In this document: positions 5,184-43,892 of the stretch, one piece after another
Layout: every line of letters starts with the position of its first letter
Numbering within the stretch: the first letter of the stretch is position 1
Sequence record: MW650886.1
Direction: 5' to 3' (one strand)
DNA: 64,000 nt
Origin: Escherichia phage vB_EcoM-ZQ1
Translations under genes and position numbers: made by a program
Notes under the pieces: generated by a model
What the model was told of the DNA's origin: nothing
What the model saw: the letters and a program-made list of their open reading frames with translations, nothing else
Databases searched by the model: none

Positions 5184-6395
5184 TTAGAAAGAAGCGACTA
5201 GATTGTAGTCAACGGAGCACGCAGTCGTCGTGTTCGCATTTGTTATCGTCAAACGAAGTTTTGAAGACACTACAGAACCCGCGAATGTCACCGTACCGGA
5301 AGTGGACTTCTGTACCAACAGCTCAGACTTGATAGTCCCGTCACGGGTGATCGTCACGCGGTACGTATCCACGACGTTGCCTGTACCCCATTGTGCACTG
5401 ATCAACACCTGGCAAAGGTTCACCAAATCGAAGTCGGGTAACGCAGAGTTCCCAGAAGCAGAGACAGTGATACCGCTTGGGTTGGTCTTCCCGATCTTCA
5501 CACGGGCAGCAATGTCGGCGTCCAGGCTTGTCATTTTGGCGTTGTAGGTCGATGTGTTGACCTTTCCAGACAACGTGGTATTGATCGTGCCGATATCACT
5601 CTGAATGCCGCTGATGGAACCGTCCAACGCCGCCATCTTCGTGTTATACGTACTGACGTTCACTTTGTTGTTCGTCAGATCCAGTATACTGGTGTCCAGG
5701 CTAGACATCTTGGAGTTGTAAGTCGACGTGTTGACCTTCGCAGCCAGAGTGGTGTTGACAGTGTTGAACTGAGACTGGATATCCAACATATCGGCATCAT
5801 AATCAACAACCTTCAGATAAGCGTTGAAACGCGTATCATTGAAGATAGAAGCCACAAACGCAGATGTGTCGTACTTGACAGTGTCGGTTCCACTCACCAG
5901 TAACATGGTAGTTGGCACACCAGTACCAGAGTAATTGGCCAGATTTGTGCCATCGAAAGTGAGTTTGTTGTAGCCGCCAGGTAACAACTCGATTTTCAGA
6001 CCAGAGTTAACCCCGGCAGTGTCTTCACTCACGCCGTGCTTGCGCAGCATAGACAGATTGACGCCATCAGTGGAATCAACTGGCTCATCTGCGATGGTAA
6101 GTTTCTTCCCCGTAGGGATACTGACACCAGCATTGGCTCGGATTTCTGCGGCAAAAGTCTTCCGCCCGTTGATAGTTTGTTCACCACCGTCGGTACGGAT
6201 CACTTTGTTTTCCAGTGTGTCGTAGATATTATCCACAGAACGCTTCAGCTCATACGTCAAATGAGCTGAAGGAGGAAACAACGAATCATCAACAGCGAAA
6301 TCGTTGACAACATCAGTCTTGCTTATTTTATCGTCAACAGAAGAAAGGATTGCATCAATCTGCTGACCTGTGTATCGACTCAGAAAATCGGCCAT
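5184..6395 (-). CDS. Tail fibre protein with internal sequence repeats
   Basis: 403-aa ORF; repeated units VNTSTYNSKM / VNVSTYNTKM / VNTSTYNAKM typical of fibre shafts; strong SD AAGGAG upstream; located between baseplate-like and tailspike genes. Confidence 0.5.
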   Translation of the reverse strand: MADFLSRYTGQQIDAILSSVDDKISKTDVVNDFAVDDSLFPPSAHLTYELKRSVDNIYDTLENKVIRTDGGEQTINGRKTFAAEIRANAGVSIPTGKKLTIADEPVDSTDGVNLSMLRKHGVSEDTAGVNSGLKIELLPGGYNKLTFDGTNLANYSGTGVPTTMLLVSGTDTVKYDTSAFVASIFNDTRFNAYLKVVDYDADMLDIQSQFNTVNTTLAAKVNTSTYNSKMSSLDTSILDLTNNKVNVSTYNTKMAALDGSISGIQSDIGTINTTLSGKVNTSTYNAKMTSLDADIAARVKIGKTNPSGITVSASGNSALPDFDLVNLCQVLISAQWGTGNVVDTYRVTITRDGTIKSELLVQKSTSGTVTFAGSVVSSKLRLTITNANTTTACSVDYNLVASF

Positions 6396-30631: not shown

Positions 30632-33388
30632 ATGAAAATGCGCAAGTCCGAGCACTTTATCCGCTCGTCGTCTTCCATTCAGGGGCAGGCGTTCAACGTG
30701 AAGATGAACGATAAGATGTTTGAGACTCTGTTCTCATCATTGTATCGTTACAAAGAGGCTGCAGCCCTGCGCGAAACCGTCTGTAACGCCATCGACTCTC
30801 ATGGCATGCGTGATCGTATGCACCGTATGATAGCATCCCACTACGTGCCTCTCACTCCGCCTCCTGCCCGCCATAGCAAATACCTTGCACCGAAGGGTAA
30901 GCAGGTTGTTGTGCATCTACCTGATGACTTTGAGCCATGGCTGGAAATCCGTGATTACGGTATCGGTCTGCCACTTGAGAAGATCATTGGTGAGCCTATC
31001 CCAGCACAGGAAGATGAGGTGCTGCTGGAAGGCAATATGGTCGTGAAGGAAGACGAGATCCCTGACTCAGCTGAGGTCATCGGTGTGCCTGCGTTCTATA
31101 ATGGTGGTCTAGTGTTCCGTCGCGAAGATGGTGAAATCATTCGTACGCCTGGGTTGTATACCACTCTCTTCCACAGTACGAAGGAAGAAGATGATGATCA
31201 GATTGGGGCATTCGGTCTTGGCTCCAAATCACCATTTGCGGTATCGGATTCGTTCACTGTGGAAAGCCGCATGGACGGTAAACTCCATCGCTTCCTGATG
31301 TACCTGAATGCCAAGCGCATCCCGACTGTTGATCTGATCACCAAAGATCTTGAAACCCGTGATCCTAAGCCGGAAGACACCGATGAGTTCAACGGCATGA
31401 CGGTGAAGATCCCGGTGAAGAACGCTCGCTTCTCCGCATTCTCTGATGAGCTGGTTCGCCTTGGTCGTGTTATGCGCCCTGAACAACGTCCAATTGTTGA
31501 GAACGCTTCATACCGCTTCAGCTGGGAAGATATCAGTTATGATTTTAAGGTCAACAACACGTACATCCAGCCGAAAGGCCAGGGGAACACCCATTATGCT
31601 GTAATGGGTGGCGTGTCGTACCCGATTGACCTGAATCAGCTCGACCCAGACACTTCCTCTATCATGAGTAAGTTTCCATCGTCCTACACGTTCTTCGAAC
31701 TTGGCTCGCTGAACGTACCACCGTCGCGTGAAGACCTTTCATATGACGAATTCACGCGTGAGACGCTCTCTGAGGAGTTTAAAGAGACCGCCAATGCAAT
31801 CTTGAAAGAAAAGATGCGTGACCTGGAGCTGGCGTGTAAGCGCGGTCCTCTTGCCCTGTATATGGAGAAGGTAAAACTGAGTGAAATGTTCGGCAGTGGG
31901 TTCCGCAAGATGGTTGAAAAGGAATACCCGGCAGACAAGCGCTTTCATGATTCATATTACCGTTACCCGCTGCCTGTTGAGATTGATCGCGATTATGACC
32001 ATACCGCGCCGTTCAATGAATTGTCATCGCCGTTCTCTATGGAGATCTTCTATGACTGGGGTGAGTCCAGTAATTTGACCATTTCAGAAATCCAGAAGTG
32101 GATTGATCGCGGCCAGCATGTTACTGTGGTGATCGAAGATAGTGTTCGTGCTCGTAACCTGAAGATCAAGCAGCTGAAAGATACAGGGACGATAGTCATC
32201 GTGGCCAAGCCGAACACATCCTATGTCACCAAGCGCAACCAATCTAAGGACAACCCTGCGTTCAAGAATTCTCAGGCTCTCTATGATTTCTTTGAAACTT
32301 GGATTGGTAAAGAAGAAACGACGGTTGATTATCTGTGCTTCGCTGACAAGTTCGTCGATTGGCTGAGTGCGGTGCTGGAGCCTGCCGAAGTCAAGTTCAT
32401 GAACGAACTGACGTATGTCACACCCCCGGTCACCAAAGACCCTGGCCTATTTCCGTTCACGCGCAGCAACTTCGACATATACCAGTCTGAAGAACTGACG
32501 GGCGACCAGATCTCAGATATCATCAACAAGGGCGAGCGCATCGTCTATATTGAGGTGTCTGGTTATGAGTGTATCCATCAGGTGATGGGCAGAACGTTGA
32601 CCGCAGCTGCGGCGCGAGGCATCCGCGAGTCTCTCTACAAACATGCCGTTCACGCGGATGAAGATGGCAAGCCGGTGTATATCAGCGATATGTTGAACGT
32701 TCACAACCGAATCTTCTTGGCTCGCCGTAAATCCGTGCCAATGATGAAGAAGTTCCCAGAGGTCTTCATACCGATTGATGAGATTCTGAAGATTATGTTG
32801 GAGAATGCCAGGCCGATGCTGGAACGCCACAACGCGATACGGTTGCTGAAATCTCATCAGAGGCTTCACCTTGGTTCTAATCGCCTGAAATACGGGTGTC
32901 ATCTGGTAAAACAGGCGTTCGGTGAAGGGGAAGACGGGCGTTATAATCAGCTGGTTAATCGGTATAACCAAATGCTGGATTATGTTGACGATATCTTGGA
33001 CGAACAAACTATCCGCCATTATCAGGCGATGTCGAAGCGTAATGTTTCTCTTCATGAGGTTCGCCGCTTCAAACATTTCCAGGATACGATCAGCACTCTG
33101 AATCTGAATCTGTATACCAATGAGCGGGATGAAAGGGTGTTCCGCGCAGAACAACGCATGTTGCAAATCTTCAGTCACGCATCGGAAGTTCTGAGGATTC
33201 ATGGATTCGTGCCGTTTGATTTACTGAAGACGCCAACACGGAACGCGAAAAAGGCGAACCGCATGACCGTAGAACGTCATCGTGTTGTCCGGTTCTTGAA
33301 AGAGAATTACAAACCAAGCGCCCTGAACCCGATTGAAAATTCTTCGGATTACTTGGACGTTATTTCAAATTCCATCATCAGGGCATAA
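30632..33388 (+). CDS. rIIA: rIIA protein (GHKL-type ATPase domain)
   Basis: N-terminal motifs SLYRYKEAAALRETVCNAIDSH and IGAFGLGSKSPFAVSDSFTV match the rIIA / GHKL ATPase signature. Confidence 0.75.
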   Translation: MKMRKSEHFIRSSSSIQGQAFNVKMNDKMFETLFSSLYRYKEAAALRETVCNAIDSHGMRDRMHRMIASHYVPLTPPPARHSKYLAPKGKQVVVHLPDDFEPWLEIRDYGIGLPLEKIIGEPIPAQEDEVLLEGNMVVKEDEIPDSAEVIGVPAFYNGGLVFRREDGEIIRTPGLYTTLFHSTKEEDDDQIGAFGLGSKSPFAVSDSFTVESRMDGKLHRFLMYLNAKRIPTVDLITKDLETRDPKPEDTDEFNGMTVKIPVKNARFSAFSDELVRLGRVMRPEQRPIVENASYRFSWEDISYDFKVNNTYIQPKGQGNTHYAVMGGVSYPIDLNQLDPDTSSIMSKFPSSYTFFELGSLNVPPSREDLSYDEFTRETLSEEFKETANAILKEKMRDLELACKRGPLALYMEKVKLSEMFGSGFRKMVEKEYPADKRFHDSYYRYPLPVEIDRDYDHTAPFNELSSPFSMEIFYDWGESSNLTISEIQKWIDRGQHVTVVIEDSVRARNLKIKQLKDTGTIVIVAKPNTSYVTKRNQSKDNPAFKNSQALYDFFETWIGKEETTVDYLCFADKFVDWLSAVLEPAEVKFMNELTYVTPPVTKDPGLFPFTRSNFDIYQSEELTGDQISDIINKGERIVYIEVSGYECIHQVMGRTLTAAAARGIRESLYKHAVHADEDGKPVYISDMLNVHNRIFLARRKSVPMMKKFPEVFIPIDEILKIMLENARPMLERHNAIRLLKSHQRLHLGSNRLKYGCHLVKQAFGEGEDGRYNQLVNRYNQMLDYVDDILDEQTIRHYQAMSKRNVSLHEVRRFKHFQDTISTLNLNLYTNERDERVFRAEQRMLQIFSHASEVLRIHGFVPFDLLKTPTRNAKKANRMTVERHRVVRFLKENYKPSALNPIENSSDYLDVISNSIIRA

Positions 33389-33419
33389 TAGTCCTGTTAA
33401 CCAACGTGGGAACTACAAG

Positions 33420-34985
33420 ATGAACAAGATTGACGAAAAGATCCTGAAGCATTTGAAGGAAGGCAAAAGCCAGAGCGCAATTGCTACTCTGTTGGGCATA
33501 CCCCGCTCGACTGTACAACGTGTTTCCGACAAGGAAATCGGTGTTGACCCTACTTCGCTGAAATCTCTGACAACAGATCAGATCGCCAATATCCAAAGGG
33601 ATTCGGCGGCAGGTAATGTCAGCAATGCATTCTTGGCCAAGGTGTACGGTGTGTCCGCCAAGACCATTGCTCGCGCTCTGTTGGTCCGCATTACCGAGGA
33701 GGAAAACAAGGTAACTGTGATCTCTCCTATCAAGCCGGAAGAGCAGGAAGTATTCGAGGTCCAACCGGGCGGCACGGCCAAAGACAAAGATGGCACAGAA
33801 TGGTATGTTGGGGCATATCTGCCGAACCACAACAAGTATCTGTGTCTCACTAACGACGACAATTTCAAAGGGGCTTTCTTTGAAAAGTCTGAATTGACTC
33901 CTGTGGAAGGTGATAGTCGTGCTTTCGATGTTGAAGATATCGGCAAGATGGCAGAAATTTCTGTGGCGCTGTCAGAAGGTGCGGACAAAGTCCCGGGCAA
34001 CGTTGAAATCAGCGTTGTGGTTGACGGGGAAACCTATCCTATCCGTGGATCCTTGGATGCCCGTCGCCGTGTTGGTTACTTTGATGGCATCCTCGGTCGC
34101 ACCCTGCGCCTGGCTCTGTCTTCTGTAGAATTCGCCGTCGCTGTCAAAGACGTTGAAGAAGTGGCTGATGATAAGAAGACCAAGCAGGACTTCGGCGCGA
34201 AAGACCTGGACGTGTTCCTGAACGAACACCAGATCCTGATTCTTCCTGACAGCGTTGTTATCGCGATTGACGGCAAGCCGGAAACGATCACCACTTCACA
34301 CCCGGCCTATGACCGCATCGTACAGGCGATCAAAGACAAAGACGTGAAACTGGCATACTCGCTGATGCGCCCCCGTGAAGCCATCGCGAAGTACGCTGCT
34401 GGTCTAGTAGACGTGTCTGACAACCGTGTCCGCTGGTCCGGTCATGACATCACAGGCACATCCATCGCCAAGCGTGTACTGGCGCTGATGCTGAAGGGTG
34501 ACTTCCACAACCTGGACCGCATGGCGAAGTTTATGGACAAAATGTTCCAGAACCCGTCAGCTTCTCTGGTTCAGTCTGGGCGCATCTATGAGTTCATGGC
34601 GTACTCTGACATCGAAATTGACGACGACGGTGACATCATCCTCTACAAATCGGTGCGCGGCAACTACATGGACAAGCACAGCAACACGATCAGCAACGCC
34701 CCAGGCACTATCGTGCGGATGGCTCGCTCATTCGTGAACGACAACAACTCTGAACTGTGTTCATACGGTTTGCACGTTTGCTCCCTGGCCTATCTGAAAC
34801 AGTGCTTCGGTTCTGTTGGCCAGCGTGTCGTTCGCTGTAAGCTGAACCCGCGTGACATCGTGTCGGTCACCGATGATTTTGGTTCAAGCAAAATCCGCTG
34901 CTGTGAATACCTGGTGTTGGATGACTACACCGCTGAGTACAACCGCCAGCACAAGTCTATTGACGTGACAGGTCTGTACAAGTAA
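33420..34985 (+). CDS. rIIB: rIIB protein
   Basis: C-terminal region YKSVRGNYMDKHSNTISNAPG...CSYGLHVCSLAYLKQCFGSVGQRVVRCKLNPRDIVSV closely matches the conserved rIIB C-terminus; N-terminal HTH-like segment. Confidence 0.75.
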   Translation: MNKIDEKILKHLKEGKSQSAIATLLGIPRSTVQRVSDKEIGVDPTSLKSLTTDQIANIQRDSAAGNVSNAFLAKVYGVSAKTIARALLVRITEEENKVTVISPIKPEEQEVFEVQPGGTAKDKDGTEWYVGAYLPNHNKYLCLTNDDNFKGAFFEKSELTPVEGDSRAFDVEDIGKMAEISVALSEGADKVPGNVEISVVVDGETYPIRGSLDARRRVGYFDGILGRTLRLALSSVEFAVAVKDVEEVADDKKTKQDFGAKDLDVFLNEHQILILPDSVVIAIDGKPETITTSHPAYDRIVQAIKDKDVKLAYSLMRPREAIAKYAAGLVDVSDNRVRWSGHDITGTSIAKRVLALMLKGDFHNLDRMAKFMDKMFQNPSASLVQSGRIYEFMAYSDIEIDDDGDIILYKSVRGNYMDKHSNTISNAPGTIVRMARSFVNDNNSELCSYGLHVCSLAYLKQCFGSVGQRVVRCKLNPRDIVSVTDDFGSSKIRCCEYLVLDDYTAEYNRQHKSIDVTGLYK

Positions 34986-35209
34986 CCAAACCCCATCCAC
35001 CAAGGAGGCTTCGGCCTCCTTTCAGTTCGAAGGCGAGACCAGGGAATACTCCCACAAGAACTTTCCTCCCCGTGATGTTCATGACCAACAGTTCGTGAAA
35101 TTGTTCTGTCGCTGTGGTGGTTGCGACTTCACAGACGAAGGATACGCGATGCACGTATACTGCTGCAATTGCTGTGGTAAATACGTAACAGTCTATAGGA
35201 GAACCAAAC

Positions 35210-35635
35210 ATGGCGAAGAAACCTGAAGTCAAGAAAGTTGAAATTAAAACCGAAGCCCCAGTCGATGACATCCAGGCGAAGGAGGAAGGTGTGTTGCCTA
35301 CCTACCTACAACGCGCCATCGATAACATCCCTCCAGGGGGAGACGGAGGCGTCGTCTACGCTGGCGGGTACGGTTGGGTGTGCGAATACCAAGACGGCAC
35401 GAAGGAACTCCTCCAGGAGCTTCCAGGGCTGGCTGCGACCCTCAAGCGTTATGGTCGCGACAAGTTCGGCAAGCCGTTTGAAACCGGGGCTGTGATTGAA
35501 ACCAACATCACAGTCGAGACTCTGAACCTGCTGGGTGAAGATGATCTCAAGTTGTTGGCTGCGCCGCTGGGTATCACAGAAGAAGATCGCATTCAGCTGA
35601 TTGCGAAGCTGATCGAAAAATTGCAGATTAAATAA
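35210..35635 (+). CDS. Hypothetical protein
   Basis: 141 aa; SD AGGAGAA. Confidence 0.45.
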   Translation: MAKKPEVKKVEIKTEAPVDDIQAKEEGVLPTYLQRAIDNIPPGGDGGVVYAGGYGWVCEYQDGTKELLQELPGLAATLKRYGRDKFGKPFETGAVIETNITVETLNLLGEDDLKLLAAPLGITEEDRIQLIAKLIEKLQIK

Positions 35636-35665
35636 GCCGGTGTACAACAGCTGAACTTATTCAAT

Positions 35666-36058
35666 ATGCCTATCGTTGACGAAAGCAACTTGATGGATTA
35701 TGCACTGAGGCATTATATTGTAGATTCTGTCTCGTGGGATGAACTGCTGGTAGACATTCAGCGGATTTCGCTAATTAATCAATCATTGAAGAGATTTGTC
35801 CCTGGTAAGAGTCCTCGGTTGATTCTCAATCAATTGATTACTGTCTTCAATACGTTCGAAACAGAGGCTGCTTGTCGCATGCTCGTTTTGAAGGTGGATA
35901 AGCCCCAGTTGCCACGCCTCAAGGCTGCTTTGTTGACATTAGGCGTATGGCGCGATGATTTATGTTCCGGTTCATACGAACCAGATAATGAGCTGATGAT
36001 GGCTCTGAACAACGATTTGGATGAGTGGAGGAAACCATGCCAACGATCACTGTATTAG
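35666..36058 (+). CDS. Hypothetical protein
   Basis: 130-aa ORF. Confidence 0.4.
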   Translation: MPIVDESNLMDYALRHYIVDSVSWDELLVDIQRISLINQSLKRFVPGKSPRLILNQLITVFNTFETEAACRMLVLKVDKPQLPRLKAALLTLGVWRDDLCSGSYEPDNELMMALNNDLDEWRKPCQRSLY

Positions 36059-36846
36059 TAGCACCGGAAGTTGTTCGCAACAAACCGGAAACTGAGCGTC
36101 TTCACACTGTAACAGGTACTGCTCGGGGTTGGGAAAAGACCAGTCTTAACCAAGACCCAGACGAGATCCTGACTGAGTGTAAAGGTCTGGATGCACTGCT
36201 GACCAAGAGCAATTTGCAGGCCGATGGCGTCACCAAAGTGGATCCAACCAAGCCCGTTGGCTTCCAGCTGTCTTATGAAATCCACGACCCAAGCGCTGTG
36301 CTGACCACTGGCCTGACCATCACCCCTGAAACTGCTAATGGTGAAGTCGGTCAGGTTGTTGAACTGAAGGCGGTCGTCGCTCCGGAGAACGCGACCTACC
36401 AGGGTGTCAACTGGTACTCTGGCGATCTGACCAAAGCTGTGCATATCGGTGGTGGTAAATTCAAGCTGCTGGCGCCGGGTTCAGTGACTGTTTACGGTGT
36501 AACCATCGAAGGTGACCACACTGACTCTACCGTCATCACAGTGGCTGGCGCTCTGTCTCTGTCTACCGATCTGGCTGCTTCTCAGGATGTAACAACAGGT
36601 GAATCCGCAACCTTCACCATCGCTGCTACAGGCGGCACTACCCCATACACACATACTTGGTACTTCTCTGATGTCCCTGGTGGTGAAGGTGAGGTGATCG
36701 ATGCTGGCACTAACCCCACTGCTGCAACTGCGAGCCTGGTTATCACCACAGTTGCTGCCGAAAACGAGGGTGAGTACTGGTGTGTTGTTGAAGACGCTGA
36801 CGGCCACTCTGTGACCTCTACTCGTTGCGAAATGGCTGCGGTCTAA
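36037..36846 (+). CDS. Ig-like domain protein (Big_2 / I-set-like; possible virion decoration protein)
   Basis: Big_2-like segment (ITPETANGEVGQVVELKAVVAPENATYQGVNWYS) and Ig-like segment ending GEYWCVVEDADG; start at ATG with SD GGAGGA. Confidence 0.5.
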   Translation: MPTITVLVAPEVVRNKPETERLHTVTGTARGWEKTSLNQDPDEILTECKGLDALLTKSNLQADGVTKVDPTKPVGFQLSYEIHDPSAVLTTGLTITPETANGEVGQVVELKAVVAPENATYQGVNWYSGDLTKAVHIGGGKFKLLAPGSVTVYGVTIEGDHTDSTVITVAGALSLSTDLAASQDVTTGESATFTIAATGGTTPYTHTWYFSDVPGGEGEVIDAGTNPTAATASLVITTVAAENEGEYWCVVEDADGHSVTSTRCEMAAV

Positions 36847-43599: not shown

Positions 43600-43649
43600 A
43601 GAAAAAGGCGGTATTATTACCGCCTCGACCCCTTGTTTGGTAACATCAA

Positions 43650-43892
43650 ATGAGCCCAGAATTTGAAAATCTGTTCGAGCGATGCTTCGAACCAGGTTCT
43701 GTGTCCGGTTACATGGACCGCCTTTGCACTGCCATTGTAATACGCCTTGCTGCCAAGGGTATCGTTGTCAACACCATTATCAACAATGGGAACAACTTTA
43801 TCATGCAGATGACTGATTATCACCACCGCACAGGCATCATCCAGGTGTCATGTGTTGACAACAGCATTATTGAATGGAGACAGTACGCATGA
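43650..43892 (+). CDS. Hypothetical small protein
   Basis: 80-aa ORF. Confidence 0.4.
   Translation: MSPEFENLFERCFEPGSVSGYMDRLCTAIVIRLAAKGIVVNTIINNGNNFIMQMTDYHHRTGIIQVSCVDNSIIEWRQYA

Follow-up and report, generated by a model that had tools for sequence, protein, structure and literature searches.

A cysteine-rich reading frame downstream of rIIB in an Ackermannviridae phage is very probably the remnant of a truncated PHROG 3805 gene

A cysteine-rich reading frame that lies between the rIIB terminator and the next gene of the DNA analysed here, a single stretch of 64 kb (the window), is very probably a pseudogene remnant of a PHROG 3805 gene. In the mechanism that we propose, the ancestor carried a PHROG 3805 gene of ~100 codons directly after the rIIB terminator, and a single 101-bp deletion between two CTCCTTTC repeats, the first at the 3' base of the terminator hairpin and the second at codons 27-30, would have taken most of the U-tract together with the gene's ribosome-binding site, its ATG and its first 27-28 codons. 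The remainder would have been left without translation start signals of its own and without the N-terminal beta-hairpin of the protein, and because both are gone the remnant is most likely not made as protein. The body of the remnant would then drift, with its last ~40 nt held for the signals of the downstream gene, gene 35210. The remnant is a degraded member of a catalogued, uncharacterised family, and nothing about it falls outside known kinds of feature.

Results

The locus and its cysteine-rich frame

The features of the locus, in window coordinates, are as follows.

33333..34985, + strand: rIIB, mechanical ORF from TTG 33333 with stop TAA 34983-34985; annotated RIIB in relatives
35002..35021, + strand: terminator-type hairpin AAGGAGGC-UUCG-GCCUCCUU, 3' of rIIB, with an 8-bp stem and a UUCG loop
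35016..35023, + strand: deletion junction, the lone surviving copy of the direct repeat CTCCTTTC
35017..35226, + strand: proposed PHROG 3805 gene remnant, codons 28-96 of a 101-codon parent, with a clade-specific earlier stop
35095..35226, + strand: mechanical "micro-ORF" of 43 codons, whose GTG start corresponds to the codon for Val54 inside the parent gene
35107..35124, + strand: first Cys cluster, C-R-C-G-G-C, parent residues C58, C60 and C63
35161..35175, + strand: second Cys cluster, C-C-N-C-C, parent residues C76, C77, C79 and C80; C76 is variable among relatives
35178..35183, + strand: TAAATA, according to the LIMEstone1 annotation the -10 of a T4-type late promoter, a putative assignment made in silico
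35197..35201, + strand: Shine-Dalgarno AGGAG of gene 35210, inside remnant codons Y-R-R (TAT AGG AGA)
35210..35635, + strand: downstream gene, 141 aa, PHROG 3795, with its 5' signals inside the remnant

The Cys-rich frame that was originally predicted between the rIIB terminator and the next gene does exist, on the + strand, with the translation MKLFCRCGGCDFTDEGYAMHVYCCNCCGKYVTVYRRTKHGEET and 7 Cys at codons 5, 7, 10, 23, 24, 26 and 27. Its cysteine density exceeds chance: 7 Cys per 23 stop-free codons was reached in 1 of ~57,000 windows across the six frames of the 64-kb window, at this frame. The only other stop-free stretches with as many as 6 Cys per 23 codons were found at ~5500 (- strand), near a 403-aa ORF at 5184-6395 on the - strand, and at ~43700 (+ strand), near 80-aa and 69-aa ORFs around 43617-43892. 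The frame had been thought to end just before the Shine-Dalgarno site of gene 35210; instead it runs through both AGGAG and the ATG of that gene, to a TGA at 35224-35226, and shares 17 nt with it. Upstream, the stop-free stretch reaches to 34969, and homology to the parent gene begins at 35017. The complete set of in-frame start codons is GTG 35095, TTG 35101 and ATG 35149, and neither a Shine-Dalgarno motif nor an ATG was found at the 5' end of the 43-codon frame, where the 20 nt preceding the GTG are ATGTTCATGACCAACAGTTC.

The hairpin reported earlier as GGAGGC-TTCG-GCCTCC at about 35005..35024 is present, with its core shifted to 35004-35019 and flanking pairs that widen it to 35002-35021; the 46-nt stretch surrounding it has a folding energy of -15.2 kcal/mol. 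Records of relatives annotate it as a putative factor-independent terminator (LIMEstone1) or a terminator (Menlow and May). A promoter and terminator scan called no site in 34986-35209, the rIIB hairpin included, and its total counts were not above those for shuffled sequence. The order of flanking genes is rIIA and rIIB upstream and, downstream, PHROG 3795, PHROG 407/10139 and then a Hoc-like Ig-domain structural protein. The mechanical rIIB ORF overlaps the end of rIIA, and the 520-521 aa annotated for RIIB in relatives point to ATG 33420 (MNKIDEK...) as the probable rIIB start.

Megablast of positions 34000-36100 against phage genomes gave Escherichia phage vB_EcoM-RPN242 as the closest match (99.3% identity), nine more records at 97-99% (YX22, A221, fGh-Ecl02, PC3, PH4, LHE287, AV101, vB_CECAV_050 and 4HA11) and a next tier at ~88-90% identity comprising CAU_YEP3, Ag3, LIMEstone1 and other Aglimvirinae. 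By this similarity the window is assigned to an Ackermannviridae phage near the E. coli phages RPN242 and AV101. Comparisons within the clade used ten sequences, the window and nine fetched relatives, in an alignment of 2.1 kb, and CAU_YEP3, LIMEstone1 and Ag3 served as outgroup genomes for the polarity of substitutions. GenBank files two of the relatives, fGh-Ecl02 (ON212266) and 4HA11 (MN445184), as Cvivirinae; Kuttervirus. The Kuttervirus label is probably wrong, since at the rIIB-35210 locus both match the Aglimvirinae (Agtrevirus-like) clade at 97-98.5% identity and have its deletion.

The frame matches the C-terminal part of a conserved phage protein

The 43-aa translation matched PHROG 3805 at positions 55-96 of 98 (E 2.9e-20), and the Ag3 protein matched the same family over positions 1-98 (E 2.6e-51). 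By tblastn the family was found in 274 phage records, 259 of which cover at least 80% of the 101-aa query. Genera with a full-length gene are Agtrevirus, Limestonevirus, Kuttervirus and Taipeivirus, and CRW-SP2 has one also. The parent gene is annotated in Ag3, LIMEstone1, CAU_YEP3, CBA120, Menlow, CRW-SP2 and PP35 as a hypothetical protein of 98-101 aa (101 aa in Ag3 orf00003 and LIMEstone1 ORF003) between rIIB and the next gene. The original prediction had left the choice between a small zinc-ribbon peptide and chance. The homology and the Cys density speak against chance, and a self-standing peptide gene is contradicted by the frame being the 3' two-thirds of a 98-101-codon gene.

The remnant occupies the same slot, between the rIIB terminator and PHROG 3795, as the PHROG 3805 genes of Ag3 (orf00003, ACO94237.1), LIMEstone1 (ORF003, CCD57564.1), CBA120 (orf003, YP_004957706.1) and Menlow (YP_009796550.1), and like them it carries the motif C-x-C-x2-C...C-C-x-C-C and overlaps the ribosome-binding site and start of the downstream gene. 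Over the part retained, its amino-acid identity to the proteins of Ag3, LIMEstone1 and CAU_YEP3 is 88-91% (90% to Ag3), the C-terminal part of the Ag3/LIMEstone1 protein reading ...FVKLFCRCGGCDFTDDGYAMHVYCCNCCGKYITVYRRT.... The proposed remnant differs from those genes in having no ribosome-binding site, no ATG and none of the first 27-28 codons, in a stop that comes 5 codons earlier, in two clade-wide changes of conserved residues, G51 to D and D68 to E, and in evolving, as it appears, neutrally inside the clade.

Among 17 parent homologues and the window fragment, C58, C60, C77, C79 and C80 are invariant, C63 is near-invariant and C76 is variable. The cysteines form two knuckles, CxC(xxC) and CxCC, with two Cys pairs kept across homologues. 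Neither the full-length nor the 43-aa protein gave a Pfam family (the best was TDBD, E 0.64), and a metagenome protein search returned close relatives only. AlphaFold modelled the full-length protein as a confident single domain (pLDDT 88, pTM 0.76), in which an N-terminal beta-hairpin of long strands (6-15 and 18-31) is followed by the Cys-rich part. Foldseek with this model found no match in the PDB; in BFVD the sole significant neighbour was Vibrio phage ICP1 ORF43 (F1D165; E 3.7e-5, TM 0.64/0.79), a structural match that connects this orphan family of the Ackermannviridae with an ICP1 protein that is itself uncharacterised. A distant relative of the parent, Morganella phage MP1 gp091 (Straboviridae; PHROG 21422), is 32% identical and keeps C58, C60, C77, C79 and C80. 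Both MP1 gp091 and ICP1 ORF43 differ from the parent in belonging to other phage families and genomic contexts, and are likewise uncharacterised. To call the C-terminal module of the parent zinc-ribbon-like is reasonable but unproven, and the PHROG 3805 parent is probably a small zinc-binding protein. The LIMEstone paper, the AV101 paper, the Ackermannviridae review and the Vi01-like phages paper held nothing on the gene or on Ackermannviridae transcription maps.

A second member of the family, in Klebsiella phage May (Taipeivirus; NC_047900, locus positions 342-637), resembles the remnant in that it appears inactivated and has no annotation, and differs from it in its lesion, a 1-nt deletion at about codon 21 relative to Menlow that leaves ORFs of 24 aa and 64 aa. 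This lesion may be either an independent inactivation or a sequencing error. In the May copy the invariant Gly61 is also replaced by E.

A deletion between direct repeats removed the start of the gene

The distance from the terminator stem to the ATG of the next gene is 291 nt in LIMEstone1, CAU_YEP3 and Ag3, as against 190 or 191 nt in the window and the nine clade relatives fetched, all of which have an identical junction. The 100/101-bp deletion is common to the window and ten database relatives at ≥95% identity, and a scan of IMG/VR for the junction found one AV101-like contig that has it. In the intact LIMEstone1 locus two copies of CTCCTTTC lie exactly 101 bp apart and bound the segment that is lost in the clade; in CAU_YEP3 the microhomology at the deletion borders is 6 bp. 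The lost segment comprises the U-rich terminator tail, the ribosome-binding site with the ATG (GAGGTCGATATG), and the coding sequence for residues 1-27 or 1-28. GAGGTCGATATG is found in Ag3, LIMEstone1, CAU_YEP3 and CBA120 and is missing from the window and its clade relatives, and the residues deleted (1-27 or 1-28) hold the N-terminal beta-hairpin of the AlphaFold model. Because the full-length gene spans several genera and the junction falls inside a predicted beta-strand, the difference is a deletion in this clade and not an insertion elsewhere. From the repeats, its cause was most likely replication slippage or microhomology-mediated recombination.

The 6-bp core stem of the terminator is followed in the window by TTTCAGTT, as against TTTCTTTT (the U-tract of LIMEstone1) or TTTTCTTT in intact relatives. 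This shortened U-tract is itself polymorphic across the clade, with a T-run of 3 or 4 T, and it could allow more transcriptional read-through into gene 35210.

The remnant drifts within the deletion clade

The remnant goes unannotated in all nine clade records that were inspected. In 8/10 clade sequences, among them the window, the frame stays open between junction and stop, and the window has kept all seven of its Cys codons. The original prediction would have been undone by a frame that is not conserved in related genomes, and the frame is indeed broken inside the deletion clade: CECAV_050 and 4HA11 share a 2-bp deletion at 35152-35153, between the Cys clusters, after which the translation continues as ...GYAMRILLQLLW to a stop and the CCNCC cluster is lost. 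CECAV_050 has a further +CC insertion at 35048, and in fGh-Ecl02 the candidate GTG is replaced by TTG. All indels of the 2.1-kb clade alignment fall in the 225-nt spacer between rIIB and gene 35210, with 0 in 1794 nt of flanking coding sequence.

Rare clade-private substitutions, defined as those present in ≤2 genomes and missing from the three outgroups, were 6:1 nonsynonymous to synonymous in the remnant and 14:42 in the pooled flanking genes (Fisher p = 0.003), the number of recent mutations counted in the remnant being small (7 substitutions and 3 indel events). From site counts, 81% nonsynonymous would be expected under neutrality. These rare within-clade variants were taken as the control because the count of "derived-private" changes in gene 35210 against the outgroups (21 nonsynonymous to 3 synonymous) seems to be distorted by a poorly alignable N-terminal region. 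One of the changes, in AV101 and fGh-Ecl02, is D to G at a near-invariant Asp (parent D67). When modelled alone with a matched alignment, the 43-aa piece reached a pLDDT of 62 and a pTM of 0.35, short peptides generally modelling poorly; the remnant is without about half of the strand residues of the fold.

Diversity in the remnant is 0.107 at third codon positions, against 0.022 and 0.011 at the others, an excess that on its face resembles purifying selection. The third-position differences fall in two haplotype blocks, 35058-35064, which sets apart YX22, LHE287 and CECAV_050, and 35121-35148, which sets apart CECAV_050 and 4HA11. At several sites in these blocks the minority allele is that of the intact Ag3 and LIMEstone1 genes. 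We infer that the block differences would be polymorphism from the time of the intact gene, either inherited or later recombined, and the pattern suggests that mosaic recombination affected the locus around the time of the deletion or later. It is mainly because the third-position pattern is explained only by inference that our confidence in the pseudogene reading, high as it is, is not higher. Across the clade alignment, the substitutions and indels show a remnant that appears to drift neutrally outside its last ~40 nt.

The 3' end of the remnant carries the signals of the next gene

Clade diversity is 0.014 over 35171-35209, as against 0.047 over 35020-35170. The same region stands out among six divergent intact genes (Ag3, LIMEstone1, CAU_YEP3, CBA120, Menlow and CRW-SP2): in parent codons 80-92 an identical codon is used at 7/8 invariant degenerate residues, compared with 3/39 elsewhere (p = 1.4e-5). 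The conserved stretch, TGTGGTAAATA...AGTCTATAGGAGA, holds both the Shine-Dalgarno site and TAAATA, and the Shine-Dalgarno site is formed by the rare codons AGG and AGA that both Arg residues use. The late promoter predicted at TAAATA rests on the in silico annotation of LIMEstone1 and on the conservation at synonymous sites. An exact match to the T4 late-promoter consensus, TATAAATA, is found at 3 places in the window, none of them near the rIIB-35210 locus, where the site reads GGTAAATA. The last ~40 nt would stay conserved because they carry the Shine-Dalgarno site and the predicted promoter of gene 35210, and by this comparison the end of the "micro-ORF" is preserved as regulatory sequence for that gene and not as coding sequence.

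Weighing of other explanations

We regard as unlikely a reading in which the truncated gene still yields a product, a Cys-rich (zinc-binding) micro-protein of 43 aa that would start at GTG 35095 on transcripts reading through from rIIB and would keep part of the parent function. The frame is open with its conserved cysteines intact in the window and in 7/9 relatives, the shortened U-tract could permit read-through, and small zinc knuckles are able to fold on their own. This reading is opposed by the GTG, which has no Shine-Dalgarno sequence before it and is TTG in fGh-Ecl02, by the two genomes that are frameshifted between the Cys clusters, by the 6:1 excess of nonsynonymous recent substitutions, D67 to G among them, and by the poor model of the fragment alone (pLDDT 62), the deleted hairpin being a large part of the fold. 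A further alternative, also improbable in our estimate, is that loss of the gene was selected twice, by deletion in the E. coli-infecting Agtrevirus-like clade and by frameshift in May, perhaps because a host defence senses the full-length protein, and/or that the Cys module is made as a micro-protein of 25-43 aa from an internal start, aided by the weakened terminator and a new GAAGGA. The GAAGGA (35137-35142) is also the basis of a narrower reading, in which its Shine-Dalgarno-like sequence serves a new 25-aa peptide, MHVYCCNCCGKYVTVYRRTKHGEET, from ATG 35149. AAGGA lies 6 nt upstream of that ATG, and both changes that form the motif, GAT to GAA and GGK to GGA, are derived in 8/10 clade genomes and not found in CAU_YEP3, LIMEstone1 or Ag3. 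However, GGA is already present at that glycine codon in the CBA120 gene, and one of the pair replaces a conserved Asp, as drift would do. The two clade genomes without the GAAGGA changes frameshift right after ATG 35149, so that the peptide is not conserved in the clade, and it would hold one half of the Cys motif only; we consider this peptide very unlikely.

Still less probable is that the whole remnant is kept only as regulatory DNA (5' leader, promoter and ribosome-binding site) for gene 35210, a reading that overlaps with the one we prefer for the last ~40 nt. In its favour, synonymous sites in this 3' stretch hold constant from genus to genus, diversity there is low in the clade, and the late-promoter -10 is annotated there in LIMEstone1; upstream of 35170, however, the diversity of 0.047 is at least that found elsewhere in the spacer (0.034) and the sequence tolerates indels, so that nothing indicates constraint on the bulk of the remnant. 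A chance open frame with chance cysteines has the small size of the frame and nothing else in its favour, and is hardly credible against its place as the unique Cys-density maximum of the window, its PHROG 3805 match and cysteines that are invariant across genera.

Other candidates tried at the locus were rejected. A fusion to rIIB by readthrough or frameshifting was set aside, as the frame of the remnant differs from that of rIIB; the relation between the two frames shifts with the T-run (3 or 4 T) among the clade, and a stop in fGh-Ecl02 interrupts the extension upstream. Coupling to a 7-codon mini-ORF (ATG 35075 to TGA 35098), whose stop overlaps GTG 35095, was likewise dismissed, its ATG arising from a substitution at 35076 that is private to the window and having no Shine-Dalgarno sequence. 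A search for RNA elements found no Rfam family in 34800-35400 on both strands at E ≤ 1.

Discussion

If the Cys-rich frame is the remnant of a PHROG 3805 gene, as we consider very probable, it should not be added as a new small zinc-ribbon gene to the annotation of RPN242/AV101-like phages, and a suitable label would be truncated remnant of the orf003 family. In form the deletion is what slippage between repeats of 6-8 bp at the base of a terminator hairpin would leave behind. The parent gene also supplies, in its 3' end, the ribosome-binding site and the probable promoter of the gene that follows, which would explain why this part resists decay. The frameshift in May and the deletion in this clade together suggest a gene that the phages can do without, or one whose loss is at times favoured: a gene conserved in the Ackermannviridae would have been lost at least once, and perhaps twice.
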